Part shown: positions 3,608 to 43,411 of the stretch, piece after piece
Layout: the number at the start of each line of letters is the position of its first letter
How positions within the stretch are numbered: the first letter of the stretch is position 1
Origin: Klebsiella phage KpLz-2_45
Strand: one strand, 5' to 3'
Sequence record: MN871446.1
DNA: 64,000 bases
Made by a program: the position numbers and the translations under genes
Notes under the pieces: generated by a model
Told to the model about the DNA's origin: nothing
The model's database searches: none
The model's input: only the letters and a program-made list of their open reading frames with translations

Positions 3608-3639
3608 AATAAAAAGTATAGGGGATTTCTCCCCTATAC
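3608..3639 (-). terminator. rho-independent terminator
   Basis: GTATAGGGGA-TTTC-TCCCCTATAC stem followed by a U-tract on the minus strand, after gene 3659-5350. Confidence 0.6.
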
Positions 3640-3658
3640 CGGCCTTATGTTCCCAAAC

Positions 3659-13284: not shown

Positions 13285-13340
13285 TTTTTATCTCCGTGTT
13301 AAGTACAAACTATTTAAAGACCAAGTAATTTTTGTTACCT

Positions 13341-13367
13341 TCACTCAAGTGATATAGGCTTTAAAAC
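13341..13367 (-). promoter_or_regulatory. conserved promoter-like motif copy 2 (TTCACTCAAGTGATATAGGCTTTAAAAC)
   Basis: Immediately after terminator 13376-13409 and 60 nt upstream of gene 12784-13284. Confidence 0.55.
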
Positions 13368-13375
13368 GAATCGAA

Positions 13376-13409
13376 ACAAAAAAAAAGAAAGAGGGAATGA
13401 CCCCTCTTT
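13376..13409 (-). terminator. rho-independent terminator
   Basis: GAAAGAGGG-AATGAC-CCCTCTTTC followed by T9 on the minus strand, after the AAA ATPase gene. Confidence 0.7.
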
Positions 13410-13421
13410 CTTTTATTAGCC

Positions 13422-15665: not shown

Positions 15666-15967
15666 TAAAAGATGAGTCTGATTTCAAAACGCACAGGTAT
15701 TTTCAAGTGCTTCAATTTTGCTCTTGCTTTTCCTGAACAGGCGACTTCAAGCACCAGTTTCTCTGGTAAGTGGTAATCGAACTTGTTCAGATACTCGATA
15801 CGTTTCTTGATAGACTCGATTGCAGTATTAATCAAGAACGGCGACCCTGTCGGTTTCCCGTCTAACGTGAAATAACCTTTAAGCGGGAGAATACCGAACA
15901 AGGAATTAATAGAGGCTGCCCATTCGGGCAGCCCTTCTATCGCGCGATAATACGGAAGTTGTTTCAT
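15665..15967 (-). CDS. hypothetical protein (ATG start overlapping upstream TGA)
   Basis: ATGA overlap; track start at 15970 is a GTG one codon earlier. Confidence 0.45.
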   Translation of the reverse strand: MKQLPYYRAIEGLPEWAASINSLFGILPLKGYFTLDGKPTGSPFLINTAIESIKKRIEYLNKFDYHLPEKLVLEVACSGKARAKLKHLKIPVRFEIRLIF

Positions 15968-17295
15968 CACTTACCTTTCATCACCAATGTGCACGATTGC
16001 CAGATACCGCGTTCCCAAGCCGCAATCTGGGCGTTCTGTAAAAGTACGACCTGATCAGAAAGGTCGCCGTTTTTAGGAACGACTTCATTAGCAGGAATAG
16101 TCATACGCAGCTCTTCCCCTTCGAAGTAGACCTCTGTAATAGCATCCGCACTGAGATTCTCTTCGACGTTGAGCATAATCCATTGATCTGCTTTACGTAC
16201 TTCATTCTCAGCCATGATATCCGCGTATTGAGTAATCAGTTTACGATTACGCACTGTCTCCTCAGAACTCGATACACGCCCGCTGTGGATGGTCCAGAAT
16301 TCTCCACCAAAATGCGCATAGCCGCTCTTCTTAACGTCCCCGTCTTTAAGCCCAGCAGAGCCAAATAAACGGATAGCCGGAGAGGCCATCAGGCCACGCC
16401 AACGTAACGCGTCGCGTACTAACTCGTTGTGCTCATCGATGGTATTAGCGCCATTAGTGAAAGTCTCTTTAAAACCGAGGTTTTTAATTTCATCGGTGCT
16501 CGGGGTTTTTAGTGTAACTGATGCCCCGGATGCGGGTAACTCAATATTTACTTTTTTCGCTAATTCACCGCGGATAAAAGCCTGAAGTTCATCAGACGTT
16601 TCAGTGACGGGGATAGCGAAACGATCGTTGACGTCAGGGACTGGTTTCAGGTTAAAACCGAGCAGGTTGTTCCGGCCATTACGGAAGGTGATCAACACGG
16701 TACTGTTGTCGTTCTGGACGCGGACGTCATTGATAGGGCCGTTATAATCGGAACCGCTTAGAGTTTCATACAGCGCCCGGATTTCCGTTTCAACATCTTC
16801 GCTAAACTGCGCTTTCGGGTAAGGTTTAGTCATCCCCGGTTCCTGAAGTCCAAAATCCCATTCGATTATCTCGTGAATCTCTCGCCTTGGTTTGTTGGGT
16901 TCAATAACCGATTGACGACGAAGCTCAGTCAGCTCTTGCGCCATACGGCGGACTTCGTACATGAATACCGTACAGCCGTCAGGTTGAGTAGGAAGAGTTT
17001 GATAATATTCGATACGATTCAGCGGGATGCGATCTTGCTTGTCCATTTCAACCTCGGTCAGTTTGTCTAATAAAGTGATTTCGTTGTAAGCGCCAAATAC
17101 GGTATCTAAGCCATATTTGTACTCATGAATTTGTTCGATGGGTAATTTACCGTAAAAGATATAATCGATACCGTTACACGGTTCGCAAATAACCCCGCCG
17201 AGTGCTTCAATACGCTTAGTATACTGTTCACGGCTGAACCGACTAAACTCACCCACTAATGCAATGTGCATTTTATCCAGAGTATCACCTGACAT
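15967..17295 (-). CDS. hypothetical protein with N-terminal BRCT-like domain
   Basis: 442 aa; IALVGEFSRFSREQYTKRIEALGGVICEPCNGIDYIFYGK fits the BRCT pattern seen in NAD-ligase C-termini. Rest unknown. Confidence 0.55.
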   Translation of the reverse strand: MSGDTLDKMHIALVGEFSRFSREQYTKRIEALGGVICEPCNGIDYIFYGKLPIEQIHEYKYGLDTVFGAYNEITLLDKLTEVEMDKQDRIPLNRIEYYQTLPTQPDGCTVFMYEVRRMAQELTELRRQSVIEPNKPRREIHEIIEWDFGLQEPGMTKPYPKAQFSEDVETEIRALYETLSGSDYNGPINDVRVQNDNSTVLITFRNGRNNLLGFNLKPVPDVNDRFAIPVTETSDELQAFIRGELAKKVNIELPASGASVTLKTPSTDEIKNLGFKETFTNGANTIDEHNELVRDALRWRGLMASPAIRLFGSAGLKDGDVKKSGYAHFGGEFWTIHSGRVSSSEETVRNRKLITQYADIMAENEVRKADQWIMLNVEENLSADAITEVYFEGEELRMTIPANEVVPKNGDLSDQVVLLQNAQIAAWERGIWQSCTLVMKGK

Positions 17296-17314
17296 TCGTT
17301 ACCTCTTTAATTAG

Positions 17315-17878
17315 TTAAAACCAATCTTCAATAGCGCGTTCTAAGTCGTTTACACTACTGCTCAACCACTGACTCTCGTCTGTCCACTCTACCCAAGGGT
17401 GAACGACGTCAAGTAGACTACAGTCTTTCCTGACTTTGATAACACTGAGATCATGGTTGGCGACGATTTCGTGTTGGGGTAGGGAGAAATAGATCAGCCC
17501 GGTTTGTGACGACTCGTCCCAGTATGTCCCCGTACTACACGGAAGTTTACAACCTTCCTCATTCAGTCCAGAAATCCCATTCTCCCAGAAGGTTTTCACC
17601 CAAGGACCGCTTTCATCTAAGTCCCGCATTGCCCTATCGGCAAAATCATCAAAAGAAAATTGCCAGCGGTCTAAGCAACGTCCTACTTTCTCGAGAAATA
17701 CTTTACGGGTAAGGGGTTCTTCGGCAAAGGTAGGGCTATTGAAAAGCGGTTCGTCTTTCCGATTCATCTGTTCACGGATTGTCCCGGTGAGATCCCAACG
17801 TTCTGTGCTGTCAGACAACACTGTCAAGATCTCGTCTACGAGTTCACGAGTCAATACAACAACTTTATCATTCGGCAT
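17315..17878 (-). CDS. hypothetical protein
   Basis: 187 aa; AGGAAGGAAA SD. Confidence 0.5.
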   Translation of the reverse strand: MPNDKVVVLTRELVDEILTVLSDSTERWDLTGTIREQMNRKDEPLFNSPTFAEEPLTRKVFLEKVGRCLDRWQFSFDDFADRAMRDLDESGPWVKTFWENGISGLNEEGCKLPCSTGTYWDESSQTGLIYFSLPQHEIVANHDLSVIKVRKDCSLLDVVHPWVEWTDESQWLSSSVNDLERAIEDWF

Positions 17879-18380
17879 TTCGCAATTTCCTTCCTATCAA
17901 TTCTATTTCATCCAACAAGGGTTTCAACGTATAAAGACCCTCGATCGCTTCTAGTGGGTTATCCGCCCGTAATCGAGACACGGTTTCGCGGTGACGTTCA
18001 AACCACTCAGCGTCGGTCTCAGGAACTTCTAGTATCTCCCACCACCTCGCTTCCGATTTCTTTTTCTTCCCGAAACGTTTTCCTTCGTGAAGTTGAACCT
18101 CTTGAACAACAAACCGGCCTCTTCCGGTGGTGATCTCTTCAGGTTCACCAATAGGGGAATACTCTTCAGTAATACTCCCTACCCATTTCTCTTTGAAGTT
18201 TATTTCCCAACGGCATTTACTCCCCCAGGCAAAATAAATCCCCGTGGTTTCGATCAGTAAGACTTTACCGTTTTCGGATGCGAATGAGGCCGCCGGAGAA
18301 ATTCCACGACGGTAAAGCGTTCGATTACCAACAATTAACATTTTACCGTGTTCGCTAGAGACGAAAGAGGCCAGAATCAT
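17868..18380 (-). CDS. hypothetical protein (TAATG-coupled ATG; track extends to 18404)
   Basis: GAGGAAAA SD before the ATG at 18380. Confidence 0.5.
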   Translation of the reverse strand: MILASFVSSEHGKMLIVGNRTLYRRGISPAASFASENGKVLLIETTGIYFAWGSKCRWEINFKEKWVGSITEEYSPIGEPEEITTGRGRFVVQEVQLHEGKRFGKKKKSEARWWEILEVPETDAEWFERHRETVSRLRADNPLEAIEGLYTLKPLLDEIELIGRKLRNAE

Positions 18381-18625
18381 TATTTCATTTTCCTCAGGTT
18401 CCATTGCACGATAATTTCTTCGTATTTCTCAATGGCCGTTTCTTGGTCATGAAATACCAACCAACCCATCTTGCTTGGGTTAGACGTATAGAGCAGCCCA
18501 ATTGAAGGTTTAGCGCCGCCCCAGTTTGTATTGAGTTTTGAAATAGGCGGAGTAACATGTACCAATTCGCCAAAGTCAATGACATGATCGTTGATAATAA
18601 CACTTTTAATTTCTTCGTCGGTCAC
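18380..18625 (-). CDS. hypothetical protein
   Basis: 81 aa; first gene after promoter motif #4. Confidence 0.4.
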   Translation of the reverse strand: MTDEEIKSVIINDHVIDFGELVHVTPPISKLNTNWGGAKPSIGLLYTSNPSKMGWLVFHDQETAIEKYEEIIVQWNLRKMK

Positions 18626-18662
18626 GGTAGGAACTCCTTATAAACGATTTTGTTTACGTTCT

Positions 18663-18689
18663 TTCACTAGGGTGATATAGGTGTGAAAC
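18663..18689 (-). promoter_or_regulatory. conserved promoter-like motif copy 4
   Basis: After hairpin 18683-18705, upstream of gene 18380-18625. Confidence 0.55.
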
Positions 18690-18721
18690 AGGGTCGAGTT
18701 GACCCTGTTCCCATAGTACGT

Positions 18722-20101
18722 TTAACTTACAGCTTTTAAGACGTTATAACTTACTGCTTCGACAGGTTTAGTGACGTCGTACGTCCGTAGCGCGTTTTCA
18801 TAGGCTACCGGGTCATGTTTGTTCAGCATGAAAAGCGCTTGAACAGATGCACCTGGTAAAGGAGAGAAAGGAAGGTTATTACTAGGTTCCGTATCAGGGA
18901 ATGCCATTTTGAAGAACTGACGAATTTCTTTATCGCCTAATACTTCTACTTCAGCCCTGACGTCTATTCTCCCGTCCCGCAGCAGCGCATCGTCAAGTTT
19001 CTCAGGGCGGTTAGTCGTCAGGAAAACGATAACATCATTCAACCGCAAGACGCCGTCTAACGCGTTGAGGAAATCTGACAAGCTACCGTTTAGGTACTCG
19101 TCCATTGCTTTATCGTCAGAACTTTGTTCTTCAACGACGAAAGGGGTATTTTTGAGTTCTTCTGGGTTTTCCGGTTTGTTTCCCTCTTTTAAGTCAATGA
19201 TAACCTTTTCTTTACTCCGCGCTTTCGTGAACGAATACGTATCAATATCCTCGATAATCACAACCCCGCCAGCTGCTCGTTGGAAAAGCGCTTGGTATTG
19301 TAATCCACCGGCGGGTTTGAGGATATGAATATCGCGCCCTAACGCGGCCGCTAATGCCGAAATCAAACTGCTCTTTCCGGTGCCTGGTAAACCGTATAAC
19401 AACACTGTGAACTTATAAGCCAGTCCTCGTGATTCGTACCAGTCTTTACTCTTATTAAAATCGAAGATAGGGTCGATTAACTCGCGCTGGACTTTATCCG
19501 TAACGACTATGGTTTTAAGGTCTCTTTTCTTCAGTCGGCACAAATAATTCCAACTGTCGGTAGTATTGACAAATGTCCGTATGTTGTCTTTACCCGTGTC
19601 TTTCAGCATAAACTCATCCATCAGGTTTAAGATAGGTTTATGGCTGCGACCGAATTTACTAATGCTAAGACGGTATTTCGAATTACTCGCAGCGTTAGCA
19701 TCAATTTCCGTGATAGAGAAAACAAACACAGTGCCCTTATGAAGAAAGAAATGTGACCCCACACCAGGCCCCACTGCGGCGGACTCTCCATTCACGTCGC
19801 CATCAATAGTTATCGTCCTACTCCAATGGAACCAGCTATTCTTAGCAAACCATTTCAGGAACGCCCCGTATTGTTCGGAGTTATAATTACTCCAGTTGGT
19901 TCCTGAGGTGTTAAAGACCAAACTGGTAACAAATTGACGTTTGACCCATTGTACTACCGCCTTGGGCGTTTTGATTAACCCCCAACCAATCGCCCCTGAT
20001 ACCGCGATAGAGCTCGCGGCGACAATCGCGTTCTGTGCCATGGGGTAGTCTTTAAAGTTAGAAAGAATATGGTCGTAAAATGACATTAGTTGTTCGAGCA
20101 T
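18722..20101 (-). CDS. BCS1-like AAA+ ATPase with N-terminal membrane anchor
   Basis: TM helix at residues ~20-45, then LLYGLPGTGKSS (Walker A), VVIIEDID (Walker B), LLNALDG, TTNRPEKLDDALLRDGR. Organisation is like the BCS1 family. Confidence 0.8.
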   Translation of the reverse strand: MLEQLMSFYDHILSNFKDYPMAQNAIVAASSIAVSGAIGWGLIKTPKAVVQWVKRQFVTSLVFNTSGTNWSNYNSEQYGAFLKWFAKNSWFHWSRTITIDGDVNGESAAVGPGVGSHFFLHKGTVFVFSITEIDANAASNSKYRLSISKFGRSHKPILNLMDEFMLKDTGKDNIRTFVNTTDSWNYLCRLKKRDLKTIVVTDKVQRELIDPIFDFNKSKDWYESRGLAYKFTVLLYGLPGTGKSSLISALAAALGRDIHILKPAGGLQYQALFQRAAGGVVIIEDIDTYSFTKARSKEKVIIDLKEGNKPENPEELKNTPFVVEEQSSDDKAMDEYLNGSLSDFLNALDGVLRLNDVIVFLTTNRPEKLDDALLRDGRIDVRAEVEVLGDKEIRQFFKMAFPDTEPSNNLPFSPLPGASVQALFMLNKHDPVAYENALRTYDVTKPVEAVSYNVLKAVS

Positions 20102-23682: not shown

Positions 23683-23997
23683 TTATTTTTGCCTGATACG
23701 GAGTTCGAGTTTAATCGATAAATCGTCACCGTCAGTTTCATCAAATGAGAGACTCCGCCAGATTCCTATTTCTCCGCCGTACGCGTAGAAATAAATCTCC
23801 CTTTCGAAAATAACGAAGAGCTTCTCAATAATCGCTGTTTCTTCATTCGTAAAAGCAAATGACGGAGAAAGCGATTCCGAACGATGTTTAGGTAGTCCCT
23901 GTAACAATTCTACGGAATCATTAAACTCCGTCGAAGTAACACCGGAGTGACGAGCGTGACCAACTACCAGACACGTTTCTAAAACGCACGTTGTCAT
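23683..23997 (-). CDS. hypothetical protein
   Basis: 104 aa; ATGA-coupled to the ThyA-family gene. Confidence 0.45.
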   Translation of the reverse strand: MTTCVLETCLVVGHARHSGVTSTEFNDSVELLQGLPKHRSESLSPSFAFTNEETAIIEKLFVIFEREIYFYAYGGEIGIWRSLSFDETDGDDLSIKLELRIRQK

Positions 23998-25373
23998 ACC
24001 GACACCTGTAATTTAATGGCTGGGTGATGCTTGTACTCAGTGAAGACGAAATCTTCATAGGTGAGTTCAAACAACCCTTTCTTCGGCATCTCTGAGTTAT
24101 AGTAGTGCTCAGAGCGAACGTAACACTCAACCGGTTTGTAAGGCTCGCGAGTTAACTGTAACTTCGCTTCCTCTAACTGATTATTGTAGATATGGACGTT
24201 AGTCAGATTACCAACCAGCTTATTGGGCGCCATACCGAGCTCATGAGCAAATGACAGCAACATGAAGGCGTAGAAAGCCTGGTTAAAGGGCTCACCGGTC
24301 ATTGTGTCACAGCTCCGCATACTGTATTTCAAACTCAGCCACTGCGTCGGTACGTGGTTCTCCGTCAACCATTCCGCTTTACGCTCAGGGGACATTTTCG
24401 GCTGGTCACAATGTTCTTCGCTGTAGCAGTCCGACATATGGTCTTCCCAAAGATCCTGGAAGTACGGGTTAGCATTGTTCCTGCACCATTTTAACCGCTC
24501 GCTCAATGTCATCTCTTCTACGTAGAACTCTACCAGGAAATGACACGGGGTAAGGCATGGTTTACCCTCCACAATATTTTCCTGCGGCGTAACCTTAACG
24601 GTCTTAGTGCGTGGTACACCATGACTTGCTAAGAACTCTTCGCAGTTATCGGTCTTGCCATGATATTCCAGGCGCGGCCAGAAAATAGCATAAAGGTCCG
24701 GACTGTGAGTTTTTAAATGTTCCCACATCTCGTCACTACTGAGAGTAACTTCTTTCGTTTCTTCCGGCATCCAAAGCGGGTTCCACGCCGAGATCAGGAT
24801 ACGACGCGATTCCGGATTGTTCCGTAGGAGATCGAGCGCATACGCGATTTGGTCAACGCCCTTCTTCTCTAATGGATTCTCGGAGAAGTTTCGCCATGCT
24901 GACCCGTAAGGGGCATTAAGGTCACCCGCTTTGTTCACGGTGACCTGGCGAGTACGCGGTACACCTTTTTCATCTAGCCAACGATGGCCGTCTTCAACAG
25001 GCTGAATGGAGATCCCTTTGCTGTAAAACTCGATGTGAGCTTCTTTGTTGTTCTCTTCAAGCCACTTCAGGCGCTCGTAGTTTTCCAGAGGAACTTCTTT
25101 CACCACGTCAGCTTCTAAACGCCACGGGTCCCAGAACTTGACATTATTCTCCACCATGGTATCGAGGTGGAGTTCCCCGTTTAACATTGCCTTGTACTCA
25201 AACCACGCAGATTTACGCGGAACGAACTTCGTGGTGAGCAGAGGGAATTCCCCGGTCGAAAGGTCGTACTTCAGTTTCGCATCAAAAATAGAAATCGTCC
25301 CCGTTCCCGTCCTGTCTCCTCGCTGACGACCGGTTTCGATAATTTCACGTAGTAGATCGAGATACTGTTTCAC
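23994..25373 (-). CDS. thymidylate-synthase-family enzyme (dUMP-specific; thymidylate synthase or dUMP hydroxymethylase) with three inserted ~55-aa repeat modules; GTG start
   Basis: MKQYLDLLREII..DRTGTGT..F..PLLTTK, RRILISAWNP, TPCHFLVEFYV (catalytic Cys), SMRSCDTMTGEPFNQAFYAF (Asn specifying uracil). 459 aa versus ~264 for E. coli ThyA. Confidence 0.85.
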   Translation of the reverse strand: MKQYLDLLREIIETGRQRGDRTGTGTISIFDAKLKYDLSTGEFPLLTTKFVPRKSAWFEYKAMLNGELHLDTMVENNVKFWDPWRLEADVVKEVPLENYERLKWLEENNKEAHIEFYSKGISIQPVEDGHRWLDEKGVPRTRQVTVNKAGDLNAPYGSAWRNFSENPLEKKGVDQIAYALDLLRNNPESRRILISAWNPLWMPEETKEVTLSSDEMWEHLKTHSPDLYAIFWPRLEYHGKTDNCEEFLASHGVPRTKTVKVTPQENIVEGKPCLTPCHFLVEFYVEEMTLSERLKWCRNNANPYFQDLWEDHMSDCYSEEHCDQPKMSPERKAEWLTENHVPTQWLSLKYSMRSCDTMTGEPFNQAFYAFMLLSFAHELGMAPNKLVGNLTNVHIYNNQLEEAKLQLTREPYKPVECYVRSEHYYNSEMPKKGLFELTYEDFVFTEYKHHPAIKLQVSV

Positions 25374-25843: not shown

Positions 25844-26440
25844 TTATCTACCTGTACGCTTATTTGTCCAAGAAGACAATCGTTTCAAATTATCTCGATG
25901 AACCAATAAATCACCCCAATTTTTCTCGGGAGAGTTATCACCAGATGTAGCTCTCTGGTAGGCATACATAATTTGCTCGTAAGAAACCTCTACAGGCATC
26001 CCGCCTGTCGCTGTGCAGAATAACGGCATAACGACGTTTTTTATCGCCCGATCTGGAGAAATACGGTTGAAATATTTTATCTGGCAAAAAGCAGCCAGCG
26101 CCGCGTGATATGCAATATCTTTACTTTTTGTCGGGCTAGGGAATCGCATCGTCGGTGCATAGCACAATTGAACTGCTTCACTCAGTGAAACGGTGATAGC
26201 CTGCCCCACTGGCATTTCTTTACCCCAGAATTGTTTGATGACCGTTTGGACAGTTTCTTGGGAGCGAGGAAACTTGTCCCTTACTACTTTGTCAAAACCA
26301 CCGTCCATAATACCAAACGAGTTACCAGGTGTAATAATGCAGTCGTAATCCTTACCCGGGACCATCGTTCTGAAATCCCGTTTTTCAAAATTTGGCCAGC
26401 TATCAAAGCCAGATAAATCAATTATCTTTAGATTAAACAT
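25844..26440 (-). CDS. macro-domain protein (second, divergent)
   Basis: 198 aa; YDCIITPGNSFGIMDGGFDKVV resembles the N-A-A-N..GGGV loop. AITVSL...CYAPTM and NVVMPLFCTATGGMP resemble the macro P-loop-like GxG motif. Confidence 0.65.
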   Translation of the reverse strand: MFNLKIIDLSGFDSWPNFEKRDFRTMVPGKDYDCIITPGNSFGIMDGGFDKVVRDKFPRSQETVQTVIKQFWGKEMPVGQAITVSLSEAVQLCYAPTMRFPSPTKSKDIAYHAALAAFCQIKYFNRISPDRAIKNVVMPLFCTATGGMPVEVSYEQIMYAYQRATSGDNSPEKNWGDLLVHRDNLKRLSSWTNKRTGR

Positions 26441-27781: not shown

Positions 27782-28323
27782 TTTGTAAAAACCCAATAAA
27801 CGTCGTAAAATGGAATAGCATGGATTCCCGAGGGGAGGTTGTCGATCTCTTCGATATCTTTCATATCGAGTAAATTGACAACTAACCCGGTGGATAATAA
27901 TCGCTTGAGGCTATACGCCACCGCACCAAGCGGAATTTCGAAGGTAATCGCCTTTTGACATTTGAAATGACTGACCAGTTTGCGCGGATTATCCGCTAAC
28001 CGTTCGAGATAATCTTTATACGTTTCCCCGTCGTGACCACGCAGCGGCCACTGCCAGATAATTCCGTCTGCGGCTACTATCGCCTCCCCTCGAAAACGAT
28101 AAGGATTTTGATATTGCTCCCATTTGAGATACCCCGGTTGGTACATAGAGCCGTGATCAAGGATCTCCAATTCTTTCCCTGCTATGGCTTCACGAATCAT
28201 TTCTGCAAGGGCCGGTATGAGAACAGTTTCCCCTGCGGCATTTTTACCAAGAGCGACCTTCTCTCCTTCCACTAAACCGTAGACGTCAGCCGCGTAAGCG
28301 CCCCGTTCAAACTTAAATTTCAT
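27778..28323 (-). CDS. hypothetical protein, translationally coupled downstream of Tpt1
   Basis: 181 aa; ATGA overlap with Tpt1 stop; Gly-rich KVALGKNAAGETV segment. Confidence 0.5.
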   Translation of the reverse strand: MKFKFERGAYAADVYGLVEGEKVALGKNAAGETVLIPALAEMIREAIAGKELEILDHGSMYQPGYLKWEQYQNPYRFRGEAIVAADGIIWQWPLRGHDGETYKDYLERLADNPRKLVSHFKCQKAITFEIPLGAVAYSLKRLLSTGLVVNLLDMKDIEEIDNLPSGIHAIPFYDVYWVFTK

Positions 28324-28883
28324 TCTTTTTTCTCCTCTACTTTAAAACACCCAACTGGAACATGTTCGACCAGCCAAACCCCGTTCAACGCTTTGTAGAA
28401 CACGTAGCCGCGTTCCAATAGTTTCTGGGTATCAATACTCAAGACTACGAGCGACCCTTTCTTAGCGTACCGTAATCCCACTAACCGCGCGGTCTCGATG
28501 TGATCGGTTAAATGGACAAACTGGCGGGATTGCGGATTGAGTCCATTCTCAAAAATACTCTCTAAATTCCCCGATGCAGTGCCGTGGTAAAGTACCTCAG
28601 GCGGTACCTCTTCATTGAAGGCCATTTCATTTACCGGGAATGAATGCCCCTGTACAGCACGGATAGAAGAAAGATCATCGGATAACCCAAATCGTTTCTT
28701 ATCGTCCGTCTCTACAACGTGCATAATTTCCTGTAACGTAACTACCTTATTCTGTTCAGAGAATGCTGCAATCAGGTCGTCGAGTCTGACATAGCCAAGT
28801 TCATCAGGCGTTAATTTCAAAGCCTGAGGCCGATGGCGTAAAATGAAACACAGTGTTTTTGATAACTTAATTGGATCGTTCAA
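28320..28883 (-). CDS. kptA: RNA 2'-phosphotransferase Tpt1/KptA family (NAD+-dependent)
   Basis: 187 aa. KLSKTLCFILRHRPQALKL..D..GYV.LDDLI, DKKRF, IRAVQGHS, LYHGTASGNLESI, VHLT, VGLRYAKKGSLVVLSID, NGVWL align with E. coli KptA along the full length. TTG start with an AAGGG SD. Confidence 0.85.
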   Translation of the reverse strand: MNDPIKLSKTLCFILRHRPQALKLTPDELGYVRLDDLIAAFSEQNKVVTLQEIMHVVETDDKKRFGLSDDLSSIRAVQGHSFPVNEMAFNEEVPPEVLYHGTASGNLESIFENGLNPQSRQFVHLTDHIETARLVGLRYAKKGSLVVLSIDTQKLLERGYVFYKALNGVWLVEHVPVGCFKVEEKKE

Positions 28884-28887: not shown

Positions 28888-29415
28888 TTACCCTTGGAGC
28901 GTATAACCTGCGCCGTAAACTTCGATCAATTGATCCCAAATAGGATCTACCCAAACGGGTACTTTGAACCCAAGATGTTCTTCTTCACGGTATAACCAGC
29001 CTTTCTTCTCGGTGAAAGAGAAGAAGTTATCTCTGCTCTTTTTAAGGTTATCGTAATAGGCAAACATTTTGTGGTCGGTCGCTTCTGCTTTATATTTCGC
29101 ATAAAGCCATTTACGGTATTGCGCTTCGATTTCAGTATATTCCACTGGCTCATACCCAGAAAGAATCGTCACACCACCCGTTGAATTCTCCGGGTAGCGC
29201 TGGAGTCCATCCCAAATAGCGGGTAGGGGGATAAAATCCCCTAATTCCCAAATATCGAACATGGGTGTCAGAACAGAGCGGGGTTCGTCCGGGCAAACAC
29301 TGAACGTTGCATTGCGGAACGCAGCTTCTTTATTTTCAGCGGCGATTAATAACACTGTCGCTTCTTTAGATTCAGGGAGATCGTAAAACTTCTCACTCGC
29401 CAGAAACAGTTTCAT
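28888..29415 (-). CDS. hypothetical protein between Tpt1 and HD hydrolase
   Basis: 175 aa; AGGGGAA SD. Confidence 0.5.
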   Translation of the reverse strand: MKLFLASEKFYDLPESKEATVLLIAAENKEAAFRNATFSVCPDEPRSVLTPMFDIWELGDFIPLPAIWDGLQRYPENSTGGVTILSGYEPVEYTEIEAQYRKWLYAKYKAEATDHKMFAYYDNLKKSRDNFFSFTEKKGWLYREEEHLGFKVPVWVDPIWDQLIEVYGAGYTLQG

Positions 29416-30121
29416 TGTTATTCCCCTGTGCAGTTAGGCCAAAATAATGACAACTACCTTGCGCAACAACTCGGTATTTTTTCGCGTGTGCCGCGCCTAA
29501 CGCAGTGTAAAACTTGAGATTGCTGATGTAGTCAATGTTTCTTTTCGTAAACTCTTCTCGTGACTGACCGAAGCGAATACCGATCTCTTGGTAAAGTCCG
29601 TTGAAGATGTCTTCATCGAGATAAGACATCGCGTAGAGTTGATCGGCGTCCCGGATAATGCCGAATAAATAACGCATACCGGTACCGCCGGGATACTGCG
29701 GAAAAGGGTCGTCGAAGTTATAATGCGTGAATCCGACTAATAAAGTGATCATCGCTTTGTTAGCCGTAGGAAACTCACGCCAGAAACCTAATTGCTCAAG
29801 TTGCTGTAAAGTGTACTCAATATTCTTCCAGTCATCTTTCTCTCCTAAGTGACAGAAATCGTGAACTAGTCCTGCGATGACGGCTGATTCAAAATCCTTC
29901 TCAGAGAGCCCGTAATTTGATGGCTCAAGATTGGAAAGAAGATAACCTGTCAGTACACCTACGCCAATTAAATGGCGTGTGGAGTGGTACGGTCGCCCTG
30001 CGTTGTGTTCTTCTACCCAGCGAATGATCCCATTGTAGTCATTGAAGAAACAACGTCCCCAGATCGGGTTCATTTCCTTCAGTCCGTAATTATCCCAGAA
30101 GACTGAGAACTCACTGTGCAT
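29393..30121 (-). CDS. HD-domain metal-dependent phosphohydrolase
   Basis: 242 aa; H..H (YHSTRHLIGV), HD (AGLVHDFCH) and a downstream D (IIRDADQLY) are the characteristic HD signature. Confidence 0.7.
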   Translation of the reverse strand: MHSEFSVFWDNYGLKEMNPIWGRCFFNDYNGIIRWVEEHNAGRPYHSTRHLIGVGVLTGYLLSNLEPSNYGLSEKDFESAVIAGLVHDFCHLGEKDDWKNIEYTLQQLEQLGFWREFPTANKAMITLLVGFTHYNFDDPFPQYPGGTGMRYLFGIIRDADQLYAMSYLDEDIFNGLYQEIGIRFGQSREEFTKRNIDYISNLKFYTALGAAHAKKYRVVAQGSCHYFGLTAQGNNNETVSGE

Positions 30122-36420: not shown

Positions 36421-36450
36421 AAATAAAAAAGGAGAGGCAAAAGCCTCTCC
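36421..36450 (-). terminator. rho-independent terminator
   Basis: AGGAGAGGC-AAAA-GCCTCTCCT followed by TTTTTTATTTT. Confidence 0.7.
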
Positions 36451-36456
36451 TCTCAT

Positions 36457-36744
36457 TTAATGTCTTTTTTGCCGTATCCAAAGATTCTTAGTTGGAATCC
36501 AGATAGCAACAATTTCCCCATGAACATGTTTAACGCGCGCCCCTTCTGGCCATCTGGGAATTACTTTTGTAATCTCTTCAACTTCATGATACCAAAGACG
36601 ATCAGGCAAAGTAAAAGCCAAAACACGCAAGTAACCGTACTTCATGGAACTTTCTTTACCGTCTATGACCATTTCGATCCACTTCCCGGAATGTTCATAA
36701 CTTTCAAGAATTCCTATTTTTTCTACGGAATCAGAATCGCTCAT
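36457..36744 (-). CDS. hypothetical protein
   Basis: 95 aa; AGAGGTG SD. Confidence 0.45.
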   Translation of the reverse strand: MSDSDSVEKIGILESYEHSGKWIEMVIDGKESSMKYGYLRVLAFTLPDRLWYHEVEEITKVIPRWPEGARVKHVHGEIVAIWIPTKNLWIRQKRH

Positions 36745-36756
36745 TTACACCTCTGG

Positions 36757-37197
36757 CTATTTTTCAGGCGGTAGGCCGTTATTAAAACGGTTCGCTTCCA
36801 TCACCGGGAGATTCGCTTCTGTCGGGACGTAGATCACTTGGTTCTTAGTTTGCTGTAAGCTATCTACCCAAAGGTAACGGAGATACGCTTCGTTGTTCTT
36901 CAAGCTGTCACCAATGATCTTGTTCGCCTTGGCGACACCGCCTGCACGAATAACCTCTGCCTCCGCCAAACTTTTAGCGGACTCTTTCTTAGCCTCTGCT
37001 TCCTGTACGGCGATCTGACGATCCTGCGTGGCTTTCATCAGAGCGGCTTTCCCCGCCATCCCCTGCTGCCAAACATTGTAGTACGGGCACCCCGCCATCA
37101 GCAGCACTATAAACGCAACAATGCCGATGGCCGCCCATTTACCCACCTTCTTTAATAACGACTTTACGTCGAAATCATTATCAGCGTAACGATTCAT
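36757..37197 (-). CDS. membrane-anchored protein with SPFH/band-7 (HflC/prohibitin) C-terminal-like coiled region
   Basis: 146 aa; N-terminal TM, then AEAEVIRAGGVAKANKIIGDSL..N..YLRYLWV...VIYVP...LPV resembling the C-terminal part of the SPFH family. Confidence 0.5.
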   Translation of the reverse strand: MNRYADNDFDVKSLLKKVGKWAAIGIVAFIVLLMAGCPYYNVWQQGMAGKAALMKATQDRQIAVQEAEAKKESAKSLAEAEVIRAGGVAKANKIIGDSLKNNEAYLRYLWVDSLQQTKNQVIYVPTEANLPVMEANRFNNGLPPEK

Positions 37198-37227
37198 TTC
37201 TATTTCCTATTTTTTAAACCAGTAAAC

Positions 37228-37917
37228 TTATTTGTTGGTTTTGGTGATATACCACTTCCAAAGGCCGTAGAAAGCATTCATCAAGAATACTGCCCACTGT
37301 GCCACCTGCGCCCATGAACCCGGTTGATTAAGCGCCGGGATCACCCACAGATAAATCGTGACGCAGTTGATAATGATCCAGAGAATCCATTGTTCTGGCT
37401 GCTGCTTGATCATCATCCACATGGCGATGAGCGATGCGACTAAGCAGAACGCGTCTAATGCAGGAAACGGATCCTGCGTAGTTTTCAGGTATTCGGTCAG
37501 GCCATACCAGAAGATAACCCCAACAACCAGATAAGTTATCACGTCACGTAAAGTGATCGTTTTAACCGCTACGTCAGCTTTGGCTGGAGTTTTGCCCAGG
37601 TCTTTCGTCCAGTAATAAATACCGATAAACTGCATGGGAAGGTAAATAGCGTTCAACGCCGCATTGGCATAAAGGCCGGTATTGTACGAAACAATACCGT
37701 AGGTAATTACGCCAATCGTCCCCCAGTAATAATTAGAGACGCGACCCTTCGCCACCAGAATCACGCAGACGACGTTAGTCAGCGCTGCCGTGAATTCTAA
37801 CGGACTGGCTTGCCAGCTCCCTAATCCGACGACGATTAACGCTACGATCAGCCAAAAGTATTCGACTTTCTTCCAGTGCGCAAAGTCAGTGAAAGTTTTC
37901 ATTACCAATGAGTTCAT
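37228..37917 (-). CDS. pnuC: nicotinamide riboside transporter PnuC
   Basis: 229 aa. Collinear with E. coli PnuC: multi-TM profile, WxxVE, NVVCVILVAKG, IYYW, ILWIIIN-type conserved stretches. AAGGA SD. Confidence 0.85.
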   Translation of the reverse strand: MNSLVMKTFTDFAHWKKVEYFWLIVALIVVGLGSWQASPLEFTAALTNVVCVILVAKGRVSNYYWGTIGVITYGIVSYNTGLYANAALNAIYLPMQFIGIYYWTKDLGKTPAKADVAVKTITLRDVITYLVVGVIFWYGLTEYLKTTQDPFPALDAFCLVASLIAMWMMIKQQPEQWILWIIINCVTIYLWVIPALNQPGSWAQVAQWAVFLMNAFYGLWKWYITKTNK

Positions 37918-38061
37918 CTATTAAATCCTTCGAGAAAAGTTGAGATGTAACTTGCGGATCTCAGATTAAGTTTGTCGCCAAATACAGCGTGGTAAAAGCG
38001 ATAGTTATCGCCTAACATCCGCTTTATTTTGCGTTGCGTACGCCGTTGTTGAGTCATGAAA

Positions 38062-39273
38062 TCATCCACCCCAATCAGCGGGGTTCTGATGAGAACCAGC
38101 CTCGATGCTTTCTACCATACTCCAATCTTTATCAAAGTTACCACCGCTGGCAGCAGGAGGGAACTTATTTGGAATTTCTGGAGCGCTCTGGCCGGCAGTG
38201 CCGTTACCGGATAACAAGTTATCAACCGCTTCACGTGATTGATCTAAACGACCTTTGTAAGAGTCCCCTTTAATGAATACAGTGCGCCCCCATGGTGTTT
38301 GGTTTTTAAATTCCCAAAGCATTTGTTGGAAGAGACTCTCTGTTTTCTCGCGGTCAGGATTCAGCCGCAGACCATCATCGACCCATGGTACTTCCGGCGA
38401 AAGAATCAACACGAGATCGTAATGCTCTTCAGCCGCGATAGCAGAAACAATAGGGTTAGGTTTACCCTCGTACAGCCGATGGTAATATTCCGTAATGAAG
38501 GCGTTCGTATCGATGAAACAGAGTCGATTAGAAGTACGTAATGCTTCCTCCTCCAGCTCTTTGTGACGATACGCAATCAACGGGTAGTCAGAACTACGGA
38601 GAGTCGCTTCCGAACCCGCTAAGACCGTTTCACAGTACGTACGGCCGTACTCTTCAACCCAGCTGGTATTGTAGAGTTTGGCGAGGTTCTTGACGAGGGA
38701 ACTTTTCCCAGAACTCTCAACGCCTAATACGACCACCCGCAAACAATAATCTTTACGGACAATGCTCGGGAGATATTCCCAATGGTCGTAAAGGTTTTCA
38801 CGGATCATCGTGGCGGAGATGGGGACGCGGGTACGGTTACTGTCAACGATAACGTGTTCTACAAAACCGAGGTGCGTTTTGTATTTTTCATCGTAATCCA
38901 GCTCGCTACTGAAAATAGCAATGCTCTGCGCCTGACTGTGATTAGCTGCCAGTCTACCTGCCTCGTTGAAAATCTTAGCGCCGAGCAGAGCAGCGTATTC
39001 TTTCCAGCCGTTCGGGTATTCCGGTACAGAAGCCTCATCAATGAAATCGATCGTGACGTGCTCTGTATCCGCGTAAGTCTGTTGCAGCCAGCGCAGACGA
39101 TTCTTGAAATTGAGTACCTTTTGGTCTCGTGGCGATTGTTTATCCAGCCAACGTTGGTCGTGGGAAAGAATGACGAGGACATGCTTAGACTGCACAGCAG
39201 CCTCTGTGATTAAGTTGATGTGCCCCAACGTAAGGGGTGCGAATTTACCGATTACTACGCCTAAGTCAAACAT
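38062..39273 (-). CDS. nadR: NadR-type bifunctional NMN adenylyltransferase / ribosylnicotinamide kinase. It lacks the N-terminal HTH repressor domain and has a ~50-aa C-terminal Gly/Ser-rich extension.
   Basis: GKFAPLTLGHINLI (NMNAT H-x-G-H), LRWLQQT, YPNGW, ISATMIRENLYDHWEYLP, VVVLGVESSGKSSLVKNLA (RNK P-loop), RLCFIDTNAFIT, YDLVLILSPEVPWVDDGLR match E. coli NadR throughout. Confidence 0.9.
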   Translation of the reverse strand: MFDLGVVIGKFAPLTLGHINLITEAAVQSKHVLVILSHDQRWLDKQSPRDQKVLNFKNRLRWLQQTYADTEHVTIDFIDEASVPEYPNGWKEYAALLGAKIFNEAGRLAANHSQAQSIAIFSSELDYDEKYKTHLGFVEHVIVDSNRTRVPISATMIRENLYDHWEYLPSIVRKDYCLRVVVLGVESSGKSSLVKNLAKLYNTSWVEEYGRTYCETVLAGSEATLRSSDYPLIAYRHKELEEEALRTSNRLCFIDTNAFITEYYHRLYEGKPNPIVSAIAAEEHYDLVLILSPEVPWVDDGLRLNPDREKTESLFQQMLWEFKNQTPWGRTVFIKGDSYKGRLDQSREAVDNLLSGNGTAGQSAPEIPNKFPPAASGGNFDKDWSMVESIEAGSHQNPADWGG

Positions 39274-39291
39274 CTGATATACCCTTCCTTA

Positions 39292-39606
39292 TTAGCCTAC
39301 GAAATGGTGATAAAGACGATGCAAGTCCCAGCCCTTATGATTCATCGCATTGAATCCCTGCTCATTCTTGACTACCACCTTGACGGCGTAGTCTTCCATC
39401 AGAAGGAAATCCCGCCCTGACTTAGAATGAATATCGCCATCGTAGACCGGACCATCTACAATCAGCTGGTTCATCGTGCCGATAACATGGCCAACGTCAT
39501 TCCGCTCGAGTAACATCGTCACGGTTTTCTCTAACTCGGCAGCGTACGCCATATCTACTTCTTCATCGGCATCTAGACCACAAATCTCAATAATCTGATT
39601 CAACAT
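39292..39606 (-). CDS. hypothetical protein
   Basis: 104 aa; AAAGGAAA SD. Confidence 0.45.
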   Translation of the reverse strand: MLNQIIEICGLDADEEVDMAYAAELEKTVTMLLERNDVGHVIGTMNQLIVDGPVYDGDIHSKSGRDFLLMEDYAVKVVVKNEQGFNAMNHKGWDLHRLYHHFVG

Positions 39607-39619
39607 GTTTTAGTTTCCT

Positions 39620-40012
39620 TTATTCGGTCCAGGGACGGAAAGTCCATGTACGAACTTTGTATTTACGATTATCAAAACGACGGCTACGGATATAGACCTC
39701 TACAGTTAAACTCGTTGCCGTTGGGGTGAGAAAAACAACCAGGTGTGCGGGTTCGTACTGGTACACCTCCGCTAAAGAAACAAACGCCGAGAACGGCAGA
39801 CTTTTCTTTTCAGCGGAACGGAGATTCCGATAGAGCAGTTTCACTGCGCGTTTAGCGAACACCTGGTCGTGGTAACTGGCGTGACGGAGACTTTTCCGAT
39901 TAGCGTTTAACTTCATCAGAAACAAACGCTTCTCCGCCCATGGGAGGTAATAGCTCAAACTGATCCCTGCCCCAGAAAACAATATTGCTGATAGTGTTTT
40001 CATTAACGCCAT
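39620..40012 (-). CDS. hypothetical protein
   Basis: 130 aa; AGGAG SD. Confidence 0.45.
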   Translation of the reverse strand: MALMKTLSAILFSGAGISLSYYLPWAEKRLFLMKLNANRKSLRHASYHDQVFAKRAVKLLYRNLRSAEKKSLPFSAFVSLAEVYQYEPAHLVVFLTPTATSLTVEVYIRSRRFDNRKYKVRTWTFRPWTE

Positions 40013-42175: not shown

Positions 42176-42458
42176 TAAGATTCTTCCTCAAGGAAAGTTT
42201 CTGTCCCAGTTTGAGGGTGCGGATCGGAAGTTCGATTGACCCACACGCATTGGCGATAATGGTTCCTGTCGGTGTTCCGACCACCGCAGTGAATTCATCG
42301 GGATGTTTCTCAATCAACCCGATGCTGGCGGAGAACAGATCTTCATCGCGCGCGAGTAGATGTAAATCAGTTTCACTTACGATGTCGCCGATGTAAGGGT
42401 AATTTGGATTGCGGTCATAGGCGACAGTTGGAGACTGCTTGACTTTCTTTGCCGACAT
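42168..42458 (-). CDS. hypothetical protein
   Basis: 96 aa; 8-nt overlap. Confidence 0.45.
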   Translation of the reverse strand: MSAKKVKQSPTVAYDRNPNYPYIGDIVSETDLHLLARDEDLFSASIGLIEKHPDEFTAVVGTPTGTIIANACGSIELPIRTLKLGQKLSLRKNLND

Positions 42459-42886
42459 TATTCCTTCCCTCCGGAGATAACCGAAAATGGGTTTGGTTTC
42501 TTAGTTTCTTTTACCGGTTCAGCGGGTTCGTCAGAACGCCCGTCAGCAGTGATGAGTTTTTGCGGGAGTTGAATCATCTGTTCCGGGTTATCAGGGTTAA
42601 ACATCTGAATGACGGACCCCCACGGGAAAGTGTCTGAGGCGAGTTTACCCCCGAAACGCCCTTCGAAGAACAACCCTTCGTCCAGTGAAGAAAGCTGACA
42701 GGAATGCGGAGAAACATTCAGTGTCAATACGTGATAACCCTGCATGTTAGGTACCGGTTTGACATATTGACGAAGAATGGGATTCACGGTGATTTCGGTA
42801 CCAAAGACCGTGATGTAAATACGACTGCCATTATCGATAAGCCAGCTATAACCTGCATCAAACAACGCTTTATTTAAAGAAGACAT
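42458..42886 (-). CDS. hypothetical protein
   Basis: 142 aa; first gene after promoter motif #7. Confidence 0.5.
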   Translation of the reverse strand: MSSLNKALFDAGYSWLIDNGSRIYITVFGTEITVNPILRQYVKPVPNMQGYHVLTLNVSPHSCQLSSLDEGLFFEGRFGGKLASDTFPWGSVIQMFNPDNPEQMIQLPQKLITADGRSDEPAEPVKETKKPNPFSVISGGKE

Positions 42887-42915: not shown

Positions 42916-42943
42916 TTCACTCAGGTGATATAGATTTTAAAAG
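42916..42943 (-). promoter_or_regulatory. conserved promoter-like motif copy 7
   Basis: Overlaps the stop of 42917-43411; upstream of 42458-42886. Confidence 0.5.
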
Positions 42944-43411
42944 CCGTCGAGTTTCTTCCCAAAACTCCACTAACCATTCTCCGCTTTTAGGCGTAACAAC
43001 TTTAACGTCGTCTTCCCAGACACGCGCCCCTTTCTCCATTCGCCAATTACCGAAAACGTAGTAATGGGTAAAAGGTAGGGTTGAATTGACCAGCGCTTGG
43101 TATTGGTGTTTGTAAGTATTCAATTTCGCCAGATTAGCAGCTTTGATAATCGAGAGGAAATCGGGATGATGAACCACTTCCAGTTTCTTCCCAAATGCTT
43201 TCGCCTCGTTACCGTACAAGCCTCTGAGGTATTGGTGTTTAAAACCGGTTTTTGCGTAATACCAAAACCCTTCCATACTTTCAAAGTTTCCGTACTCAGG
43301 GTGAATGAAAGGTGTCTTTGGAAAGTGAGAGAGAAAGAACCCGAGACGGTTCTTGGACTTAGAGTAAATGTTGATGTGGTCAATACCGTCATTGTTTGGG
43401 TTCAAAGTCAT
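42917..43411 (-). CDS. hypothetical protein; possible NADAR (YbiA/DUF1768-like) ADP-ribose-processing domain (tentative)
   Basis: 164 aa. INIYSKS..LGFFLSHFP and EGFWYYAKTGF loosely parallel YbiA INFYS..YGDFSNFA and EHYFQAQKF. C-terminal LVEFWEETRRLL parallels LGYLLMELREQL. By-eye similarity only. Confidence 0.45.
   Translation of the reverse strand: MTLNPNNDGIDHINIYSKSKNRLGFFLSHFPKTPFIHPEYGNFESMEGFWYYAKTGFKHQYLRGLYGNEAKAFGKKLEVVHHPDFLSIIKAANLAKLNTYKHQYQALVNSTLPFTHYYVFGNWRMEKGARVWEDDVKVVTPKSGEWLVEFWEETRRLLKSISPE

Follow-up and report, generated by a model that had tools for sequence, protein, structure and literature searches.

A NadR-like enzyme and a PnuC transporter as a probable NARP3-type NAD+ reconstitution module in a Klebsiella jumbo phage

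Results

Organization of the nadR-pnuC locus

The stretch of DNA analyzed here, in the following referred to as the window, comprises 64,000 nucleotides of one strand of Klebsiella phage KpLz-2_45 (record MN871446.1). The open reading frame (ORF) listing of the window confirmed a nadR-like gene and pnuC on the minus strand at the positions given in a preliminary description of this DNA. The locus has the following features:

38062..39273, minus: nadR-like gene; 403 aa, nicotinamide mononucleotide (NMN) adenylyltransferase and ribosylnicotinamide kinase without a helix-turn-helix (HTH) domain; orthologue of Bas30_86
38743..39273, minus: NMN adenylyltransferase (NMNAT) domain; residues 1-177, boundary set from residues 1-166 of Bas30_86 with an offset of 11 residues (domain limits of Bas30_86 as given in PMC13464706)
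38212..38742, minus: ribosylnicotinamide kinase (RNK, P-loop) domain; residues 178-354
38065..38211, minus: C-terminal tail; residues 355-403, 49 aa, clade-specific, rich in Gly, Ser, Ala and Pro, predicted to be disordered
37914..38057, minus: small ORF between nadR and pnuC; 47 aa from the ATG at 38057
37228..37917, minus: pnuC; 229 aa, nicotinamide riboside (NR) transporter; orthologue of Bas30_87
36757..37197, minus: gene for a 146-aa membrane-anchored protein directly downstream of pnuC; phrog_11227 match
36427..36454, minus: terminator-like hairpin from a consensus scan; 12 pairs, then a T-run

nadR and pnuC are separated by 144 nt on one strand, with the single small ORF residing in this segment, and the spacing of the three ORFs is tight: only 4 nt lie between the stop of nadR and the ATG of the small ORF, whose own stop overlaps the pnuC start (ATGA). 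If started at the GTG at 38069, the small ORF would comprise 51 aa. The preliminary description omitted the small ORF; the two genes share a strand and are tightly packed but not directly adjacent. As the genes abut directly in phages TrudiRoth and YC1, the arrangement represents a variant. The 146-aa protein matches phrog_11227 ('protease') at 1.3e-60; its gene is kept downstream of pnuC in the relatives FBKp24, Centimanus, MJ359 and LPKP23 and is probably part of the same transcript as pnuC. The candidate hairpin at 36427..36454 likely marks the end of the transcription unit, and the FBKp24 record annotates a terminator at the equivalent place.

A bifunctional NadR-family enzyme without HTH domain

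With the NadR equivalog NF005988 (cut-off 201), the enzyme reached 260.5 bits. As this match covers model positions 65-408 of 411, the protein runs collinear to enterobacterial NadR except for the ~64 N-terminal residues of the latter that hold the HTH. Against TIGR01526 it scored 269.9 bits, below the cut-off of 341. PF01467 and PF13521 both match, as does phrog_3462 (4.9e-125), and the crystal structures 9X6F/9X6H of Bas30_86 from phage TrudiRoth match residues 2-354 with an E-value of 2.8e-142. The AlphaFold2 (AF2) model has a pLDDT of ~95 over residues 1-360, and Foldseek gave a target-normalised TM-score of 0.84 to 8X7F as well as to 1LW7, the nearest structures being the NadR proteins of E. 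coli, H. influenzae and L. lactis.

No HTH family was matched in the enzyme by the Pfam search. An N-terminal extension of the gene is impossible, since the ORF listing takes the first start codon after a stop as the ORF start, the nearest upstream gene ends 18 nt from nadR, and the ATG has a good Shine-Dalgarno sequence (AAGGAAGGG) in front of it. A hidden or split HTH upstream of nadR was similarly ruled out: the 104-aa ORF located there has no HTH match, and nadR is not extendable. Thus, the start of the NF005988 match, the fixed ORF start and the missing HTH match bear out the proposed HTH-less, purely enzymatic NadR. The protein does not, as had been assumed, start directly at an H-x-G-H motif; the motif is a T-x-G-H variant, T15-L-G-H18, at residues 15-18. 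Judged by its sequence, the protein is a bifunctional NadR-family enzyme and not a regulator, despite the GenBank names of its relatives.

In the NMNAT domain, K10, F11, S37, E80, P84, Y86, G89, W90, Y93, F121, S123, D126, V150, I152 and the stretch I-S-A-T-x-x-R158 are conserved. The kinase domain is matched by PF13521 (AAA_28) at residues 179-323 (1.7e-30) and has the Walker A motif G184-x4-G189-K190-S191 along with conserved D255, E241 and D286. The dN/dS ratio of the enzyme body (0.02-0.04) indicates strong purifying selection, to which the kinase domain is subject in the same way as the rest of the body.

The PnuC transporter

PF04973 (NMN_transporter) matches the transporter at 3.1e-43 with 148.2 bits (cut-off 27.3) over profile positions 1-174 of 175. 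The score against TIGR01528 (PnuC) is 121.9 bits at a cut-off of 42.45, phrog_1880 matches at 3.8e-56, and the solved PnuC structure 4QTN of N. mucosa at 3.6e-29. The E. coli-type subfamily NF011926 reached 58.9 bits, below its cut-off of 335. The near-collinearity with the E. coli counterparts suggested in the preliminary description applies to NadR, minus the HTH; PnuC fits the general PnuC family and not the E. coli subfamily. Residues N48, Q96 and N184 align with N45, Q94 and N180, by which Bas30_87 binds NR, and are identical at all three positions.

These data bear on a further reading, in which the enzyme would mainly act as an NMNAT recycling intracellular NMN, or the transporter would carry another Pnu substrate such as thiamine or riboflavin, NR import being incidental. 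Pnu-family transporters with substrates other than NR do exist, and intracellular NMN is formed by the NAD+-dependent DNA ligase. However, all three NR-binding residues of Bas30_87 defined by mutagenesis are conserved, the transporter passes the PnuC equivalog cut-off, and the kinase retains the Walker A motif along with D255, E241 and D286 and is under the same strong purifying selection as the rest of the enzyme body; moreover, neither gene alone rescues phages in the tested orthologue. We regard this reading as very improbable.

The C-terminal tail and the variable nadR-pnuC junction

The presence of a Gly/Ser/Pro-rich tail of ~50 aa that is absent from bacterial NadR was confirmed: the tail has 49 residues (355-403; eight Gly, six Ser, six Ala and five Pro), and none of the solved NadR structures aligns past residue ~355. 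The AF2 model has a pLDDT below 50 at residues 361-403 and a single short helix at 385-390. Among 54 aligned homologues, the tail was seen only in the ~404-aa Maaswegvirus-type proteins (P0001-P0003). Forty-seven of the 50 other sampled homologues stop 1-9 residues past position 354, and the remaining three have unrelated tails of 25, 26 and 156 residues; Bas30_86 and the NadR of YC1 likewise end within 8 residues of this position. The tail is present in the NadR proteins of FBKp24, LPKP23, MJ359 and Centimanus in strongly diverged form, with only 14-25 of ~45 positions shared between relatives that have 94-99% identity in the enzyme body. With a dN/dS of 0.2-0.4, its rate of evolution is about tenfold that of the body.

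In comparison with the nearest annotated relative, DNA homology ends precisely where the tail-coding sequence begins, indicating that the tail travels with a swappable cassette that separates nadR and pnuC and is peculiar to the Maaswegvirus-like clade. Between nadR core and pnuC, the window phage and FBKp24 harbor an ORF of 50-51 aa, LPKP23 and Centimanus one of 156-157 aa, and MJ359 two ORFs of 156 and 133 aa. The small ORF of the window phage is 67% identical to FBKp24 gp136 and has a basic N-terminus; it matched no Pfam, NCBIfam or PHROG family, and the 156-aa ORF of the relatives no Pfam or PHROG family. We considered the 51-aa ORF as a remnant of the 156-aa ORF, but a forced alignment gave 22-24% identity, and the two are accordingly not homologous. 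It might be speculated that the junction is a recombination hot spot at which small accessory genes are swapped along with the enzyme tail, and that the tail or cassette proteins could modulate the pathway, although we consider this quite unlikely. If true, the tail or cassette might tether NadR to PnuC or add a counter-defence function to an anti-defence operon.

Most likely, the tail is a non-catalytic, disordered extension under weak constraint that originated together with the variable cassette between the genes. Alternatively, it might be a functional docking segment that, for example, anchors the enzyme at the membrane or on the cytoplasmic side of the PnuC trimer and couples import to phosphorylation. 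Its length is held at 45-50 residues across all four divergent alleles, its dN/dS is below 1, and a loose motif, P-[GN]-K-[FL]-x-x-A ... [VM]-[ED]-S-[IV]-[ED], recurs and overlaps the only predicted helix. Such a role appears unlikely in view of the low pLDDT, the divergence of the tails among nearly identical enzyme bodies, their absence or unrelatedness outside the clade and the mobility with the cassette; furthermore, Bas30_86 functions without a tail, and no second ORF of the window carries the tail sequence. The tail was also considered as a localisation or packaging tag shared between proteins; a lax BLASTP and motif search of the six-frame ORFs of the window returned only nadR.

Discussion

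A NARP3-type module

Based on sequence, the locus appears to be a NARP3-type NAD+ reconstitution module of a Klebsiella jumbo phage (~300 kb) from the Maaswegvirus (FBKp24) group, a reading to which we assign a probability of about 0.85. NARP3 comprises Bas30_86 and Bas30_87 of Escherichia phage TrudiRoth (Demerecviridae), which mediate NR import and the conversion of NR via NMN to NAD+ and rescue phages from NAD+ depletion by Sir2-HerA and DSR1 (Sci Adv, August 2026, PMC13464706; PDB 9X6H, 9X6F); a nadR/pnuC operon had been put forward as a third pathway already in 2024. For Bas30_86/87, NR binding was shown, and T7 and lambda were rescued 10^3- to 10^4-fold from Sir2-HerA, K. pneumoniae included, with no rescue by Bas30_86 or Bas30_87 alone (PMC13464706). 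The TrudiRoth module was tested by plasmid expression only and not in its native phage.

The window locus encodes both of these proteins, with gene order and shared strand as in TrudiRoth. Identity to Bas30_86 is ~63% for the enzyme, which is likewise HTH-less and equipped with a T-x-G-H motif (T-R-G-H in Bas30_86); the transporter shares 47% identity with Bas30_87. Of 18 Bas30_86 residues cited as ligand-contacting or mutated (PMC13464706), 16 are identical in the window enzyme, the exceptions being K168 (R179) and R167 (L178). The NMNAT residues K10, F11, S37, E80, P84, G89, F110, S112, D115, V139 and I141 are all identical (the last five being F121, S123, D126, V150 and I152 in window numbering), and the RNK residues K163, E230 and D275 are kept (K174, E241 and D286) together with the Walker A motif. 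R167 is replaced by Leu in all five phages of the window clade; it is an NR-site residue predicted by docking and is not among the reported mutants (PMC13464706). The two systems differ in several further respects: the window phage is a ~300-kb jumbo myovirus, whereas TrudiRoth is a T5-like siphovirus; the window enzyme is extended by the disordered tail of 49 residues and by an insert of 11 residues around position 100; and its gene is parted from pnuC by the ORF of 47-51 aa, whereas the TrudiRoth genes abut.

In the window phage, transport, catalysis and anti-defence effect would follow by orthology. During infection, PnuC in the host inner membrane would admit NR, the kinase domain of the NadR-like enzyme would phosphorylate NR to NMN, thereby also trapping it in the cell, and the adenylyltransferase domain would form NAD+ from NMN and the AMP moiety of ATP. 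The net effect would be that NAD+ is kept or rebuilt against host NADase defences (Sir2-HerA, DSR1 and similar systems) or against NAD+-consuming enzymes of the phage. Without an HTH, the enzyme has no repressor role, and we therefore propose that it is unregulated during infection. The NR import and two-step NAD+ synthesis foreseen in the preliminary description are exactly what the orthologous pair Bas30_86/87 performs, with the mutated residues conserved here; its distinction of this route from the NARP1 and NARP2 pathways matches the separate status of NARP3, and the suggested outpacing of NADase immunity is in line with the phage rescue by that pair (PMC13464706).

Counter-defence or general NAD+ supply

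The main benefit of the module may be counter-defence or a general supply of NAD+. The pair might act as a general auxiliary metabolic module that provides NAD+ for NAD+-using reactions of the phage, such as RNA repair by KptA/Tpt1, and for the large-burst infection of a jumbo phage, in which case selection would not be directed mainly against NADase immunity; this is compatible with the NARP3 explanation. Surveys find NadR and PnuC to be common in medium-sized and jumbo phages beside NAD+-using enzymes (PMC9503650, PMC11662467). In the window, a NAD+-consuming enzyme is located nearby, as had been presumed: KptA/Tpt1 is encoded at 28320-28883 on the same strand, 8.3 kb from the pair (PF01885 at 3e-43). 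In addition, a macro-like protein encoded at 25844-26440 resembles the yeast structure 1NJR at 9.1e-6, which we take to be the ADP-ribose-1''-phosphatase YMR087W. However, Tpt1 (KptA) consumes NAD+ in stoichiometric proportion to the RNA ends it repairs, a small drain, and the orthologous pair has a large demonstrated anti-defence effect. Selection mainly for metabolic supply is thus possible but the less probable case. A 164-aa ORF at 42917-43411 was suspected to contain a NADAR domain, which was not supported by Pfam (E <= 1) or by the PDB sequence search; it only matched phrog_652, a family of unknown function.

Distribution

Each of the two genes occurs in about 790-800 of the 50,697 phage records of the searched collection (~1.6%), a per-gene count far above the 124 modules, mostly enterobacterial, counted in the NARP3 paper (PMC13464706). 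The hosts of these phages include Vibrio, Salmonella, Klebsiella, Escherichia, Bacillus, Lactobacillus, Prevotella (Lak phages) and others. None of the 11 relatives in the phage collection lacks the pair, the five annotated ones among them name the genes NadR and PnuC, and both proteins belong to established PHROG families. The novelty implied for the pair is therefore not upheld: it is core equipment of the relatives, widespread among phages, and its pathway is published and named. Thus, the salvage pair is already known as NARP3, and its functional reading was right but ordinary. The NARP3 counter-defence route would hence also be part of the core gene set in a clade of Klebsiella jumbo phages with genomes of ~300 kb, certain members of which are of therapeutic interest against K. 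pneumoniae.

Comparison with other systems

The Klebsiella phages vB_KpM_FBKp24 (Maaswegvirus), LPKP23, vB_kp_MJ359 and vB_KpM_Centimanus possess the same locus and flanking genes, with NadR 86-90% and PnuC 94-100% identical to the window proteins. Compared to the trifunctional NadR of E. coli and Salmonella (8X7F), the window enzyme has the same NMNAT and RNK folds and chemistry but lacks the HTH repressor domain; it is ~34% identical to bacterial NadR and carries T-x-G-H in place of the H-x-G-H type motif of E. coli (H-T-G-H). While nadR and pnuC are unlinked in E. coli, they form one operon here. The transporter belongs to the same PnuC family as that of N. mucosa (4QTN). HTH-less NadR proteins are not restricted to phages, as the alignment with L. 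lactis NadR (6GYE) starts at residue 15 of the latter and a further homologue (P0043) resides on a 2.6-Mb bacterial contig. With NARP1 (ADPR-PP synthetase and Namat) and NARP2 (Nampt and NMNAT, e.g. NadV/NatV of KVP40) the module would share the outcome that the phage rebuilds NAD+. The substrates differ, being ADP-ribose and nicotinamide for NARP1 and nicotinamide and PRPP for NARP2; both pathways operate without a transporter, whereas the module described here would depend on external NR.

A NadR-like enzyme and a PnuC transporter in the phage genome

Both genes were found on the minus strand in the ORF listing, at the place given for them in the preliminary description. The small ORF between them, which that description had missed, interrupts the pair:

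38062-39273 (-), order 1: nadR, NadR-like enzyme, 403 aa (cytidylyltransferase-like domain, residues 7-159; P-loop kinase domain of AAA_28 type, residues 179-323)
37914-38057 (-), order 2: small ORF, 47 aa if counted from its ATG, 4 nt past the nadR stop (51 aa with the GTG at 38069)
37228-37917 (-), order 3: pnuC, transporter, 229 aa, ATGA stop/start overlap with the small ORF
36757-37197 (-), order 4: 146-aa membrane protein (phrog_11227, 'protease', 1.3e-60)
after the 146-aa gene, order 5: 95-aa ORF
36454-36427 (-), order 6: terminator-like hairpin, 12 pairs

The 403-aa ORF passes the NadR equivalog NF005988 (260.5 bits versus 201), and since the match spans model positions 65-408 of 411, it covers all of NadR there except the HTH domain. 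The ORF is not extendable upstream, as a Shine-Dalgarno sequence is located 5' of its ATG and the stop of the previous gene lies 18 nt before it. Thus, the domain is absent, as had been noted, which indicates a NadR-like enzyme without repressor function. The nucleotidyltransferase motif, in contrast, had been described as H-x-G-H directly at the protein start, but is T15-L-G-H18. Structural modeling by AlphaFold2, built on 54 homologues, yielded a mean pLDDT of 88.6 (~95 in the body, the enzyme part before the C-terminal tail), with E. coli NadR 8X7F and H. influenzae NadR 1LW7 as top structural matches (target-normalised TM-score 0.84 each), followed by L. lactis NadR. Based on its matches to PF04973 (3.1e-43), the TIGR01528 equivalog (121.9 bits, cut-off 42.45) and the solved PnuC 4QTN (3.6e-29), the 229-aa ORF is assigned as a full-length PnuC. 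The likeness to E. coli that had been claimed for both proteins holds for NadR, which follows the NF005988 model minus the HTH domain, but not for PnuC, which falls outside the E. coli subfamily (NF011926, 58.9 bits, cut-off 335). Both proteins belong to PHROG families of the class auxiliary metabolic genes (NadR, phrog_3462, 4.9e-125; PnuC, phrog_1880, 3.8e-56).

Conservation of functional residues and proposed function

The closest characterised counterparts are Bas30_86 and Bas30_87 of Escherichia phage TrudiRoth, which together form NARP3 and were published on 12 August 2026 (PMC13464706). Bas30_86, solved as 9X6F/9X6H, is a NadR without HTH domain that converts nicotinamide riboside (NR) via NMN to NAD+, and Bas30_87, a trimeric transporter of the PnuC type, binds NR with a Kd of ~0.66 uM (PMC13464706). 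Residues 2-354 of the phage NadR match 9X6F/9X6H with E = 2.8e-142, and alignment with the TrudiRoth locus and relatives gave 63% identity to Bas30_86; PnuC is 47% identical to Bas30_87. Of the ligand-contacting or mutated Bas30_86 residues cited in PMC13464706, 16/18 are identical, the two exceptions being K168, which is R179 here, and R167, a docking-proposed residue, which is L178. The T-x-G-H motif, D255 and the I-S-A-T-x-x-R stretch are intact, as is Walker A, whose last residue is S191 as compared to T180 in Bas30_86. Similarly, all three NR-binding residues of Bas30_87 (N45, Q94, N180) are kept as N48, Q96 and N184. Gene content and residue conservation are directly visible in the window; by analogy with the tested orthologues, transport, catalysis and an anti-defence effect may be expected in this phage as well. 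External NR would be admitted by PnuC, phosphorylated to NMN by the kinase domain and adenylated to NAD+ by the adenylyltransferase domain. NR import and two-step NAD+ synthesis, as originally proposed, are thus supported, and the underlying observation is confirmed.

The genes from nadR through the small ORF, pnuC and the 146-aa and 95-aa ORFs to the hairpin appear to form one transcription unit, which we only infer, since promoter and terminator scans gave no enrichment over shuffled sequence. The 146-aa protein, which has one N-terminal membrane helix and also a weak lipoprotein phrog match, is encoded directly 3' of pnuC, a position kept in all annotated relatives, and its gene is probably co-transcribed with pnuC.

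The C-terminal tail and the nadR-pnuC junction

The C-terminal tail that had been noted comprises 49 residues (355-403; G8, S6, A6, P5), and every alignment to a solved NadR ends before it. Among 53 aligned database homologues, a comparable tail occurs only in three clusters of ~404 aa from Maaswegvirus-type phages; 47 of the other 50 stop 1-9 residues past position 354, mostly with an x-x-N-x-G-x-[FC] motif, and the remaining three end in tails of unrelated sequence (25, 26 and 156 residues). The AlphaFold2 model has pLDDT < 50 for residues 361-403, with a single short helix at 385-390. Within the clade the tail is constant in length, with just 14-25 of ~45 positions identical, in contrast to residues 1-320, which are 94-99% identical. 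With synonymous sites unsaturated, its dN/dS ranges from 0.2 to 0.4, while the body, at 0.02-0.04 in every pairwise comparison of five clade members, is under strong purifying selection.

Synonymous divergence is far higher in the last ~80 nadR codons than elsewhere in the gene: between the window phage and LPKP23, dS is already ~1.5 at residues 321-354, compared to 0.13 in the body. DNA homology to LPKP23 and MJ359 is lost between 37923 and 38213, a stretch that coincides exactly with the small ORF and the codons of the tail. The replaceable segment (37918-38211) compares with 13141-13786, 2637-3680 and 2198-2695 in loci of relatives (L002, L005 and L004, respectively). Different, unrelated ORFs occupy the junction: one of 50-51 aa in the window phage and FBKp24 (gp136, 67% identical), one of 156-157 aa in LPKP23 and Centimanus, and two of 156 and 133 aa in MJ359; none of these junction ORFs gave a family match. 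The N-terminus of the small ORF is very basic (MTQQRRTQRKIKR...). The simplest reading is a variable cassette inserted at the nadR-pnuC junction, with the tail as a disordered extension under weak constraint, exchanged by recombination along with the cassette. The tail might serve in docking, given that a loosely defined motif, P-[GN]-K-[FL]-x-x-A ... [VM]-[ED]-S-[IV]-[ED], recurs in the tails; the DW-x-x-VES core of the window tail is common to Centimanus only. However, 47/50 homologues sampled outside the clade lack it, and Bas30_86 is fully active although it has no tail; on balance, the tail is more likely dispensable.

Neighbouring genes

NAD-consuming enzymes had been suggested nearby, and they are indeed present:

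28320-28883 (-): KptA/Tpt1 RNA 2'-phosphotransferase (PF01885, 3e-43)
25844-26440 (-): macro-like protein (yeast structure 1NJR, 9.1e-6; Pfam Macro_2 below threshold)
29393-30121 (-): phosphohydrolase-like ORF (phrog_16069)

The three genes are near one another and resemble an NAD+-dependent set for RNA-end repair, as described for jumbo phages (PMC9503650); given this set, a general NAD+-supply role beside counter-defence is plausible. Further genes in the window include a 459-aa thymidylate synthase (23994-25373, -), whose Pfam match falls into two parts, with residues 2-202 spanning just profile positions 1-138 of 266, which suggests a sizeable insertion; an SspB-like adaptor (42458-42886, -; phrog_8945, 4.8e-7; Pfam SspB, just E = 0.15); a BCS1_N plus AAA ATPase (18722-20101, -; PF08740, 1.5e-10; PF00004, 2.7e-15); and a second AAA ATPase at 13422-14738.

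Distribution and comparison with known systems

By megablast, 11 phage records match window 36700-39700, all of them ~300-kb Klebsiella pneumoniae jumbo phages, and all 11 carry the nadR and pnuC pair. Six were deposited as 'Serratia phage Kp...' with K. pneumoniae as stated host; the others are Klebsiella phages LPKP23, MJ359, Centimanus and FBKp24 (genus Maaswegvirus, two records). One 'Serratia phage' record, MN871451 (KpYy_2_45), is 100% identical at this locus but only 95.5% (90% coverage) across 15967-20101, a stretch that MJ359 and KpZh_1 match more closely; such locus-dependent identity points to mosaicism among these phages.

Among 50,697 phage records, tblastn detected 789 with the enzyme and 800 with the transporter, at almost equal numbers per host genus (enzyme/transporter): Vibrio 354/394, Salmonella 174/173, Klebsiella 45/45, Escherichia 38/37, Bacillus 24/24, Lactobacillus 18/18, Prevotella 15/15 and Erwinia 14/14. 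Where a sampled record appears in both listings, nadR and pnuC are no more than ~1 kb apart. Enterococcus phages have 27 NadR-like matches, yet are not among the top PnuC host genera, so that in some phages the enzyme may occur with no transporter that can be recognised. In KVP40-type phages the matches are weak (~22% identity). According to the preliminary description, the pair would be less novel if it proved to be core equipment of the phage family, and its occurrence in all 11 clade records lowers its novelty accordingly.

For NARP3, 124 modules had been counted, mainly enterobacterial ones (PMC13464706); the spread found here is broader. In that study, Bas30_86 and Bas30_87 together, and neither alone, refilled NAD+/NADH pools drained by Sir2-HerA or DSR1, rescued T7 and lambda 10^3- to 10^4-fold in an NR-dependent manner, and were also effective against Sir2-HerA in K. 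pneumoniae (PMC13464706). Iyer et al. in 2022 had included NadR in their list of enzymes for NAD+ synthesis in medium and jumbo phages (PMC9503650). The 2024 NARP1/NARP2 preprint described phage NadR as usually in an operon with PnuC, put NadR-PnuC forward as an additional pathway of reconstitution and named BASEL phages with it, and a 2024 survey found pnuC in 68/174 NAD-gene-bearing jumbo phages (PMC11662467). The GenBank entries of FBKp24, LPKP23, MJ359 and Centimanus already name both genes at this locus. What is left over, the fast-evolving disordered tail and the swappable junction cassette, is minor; the system itself is not new, having been named and its mechanism characterised before, and its occurrence in this clade has been recorded.
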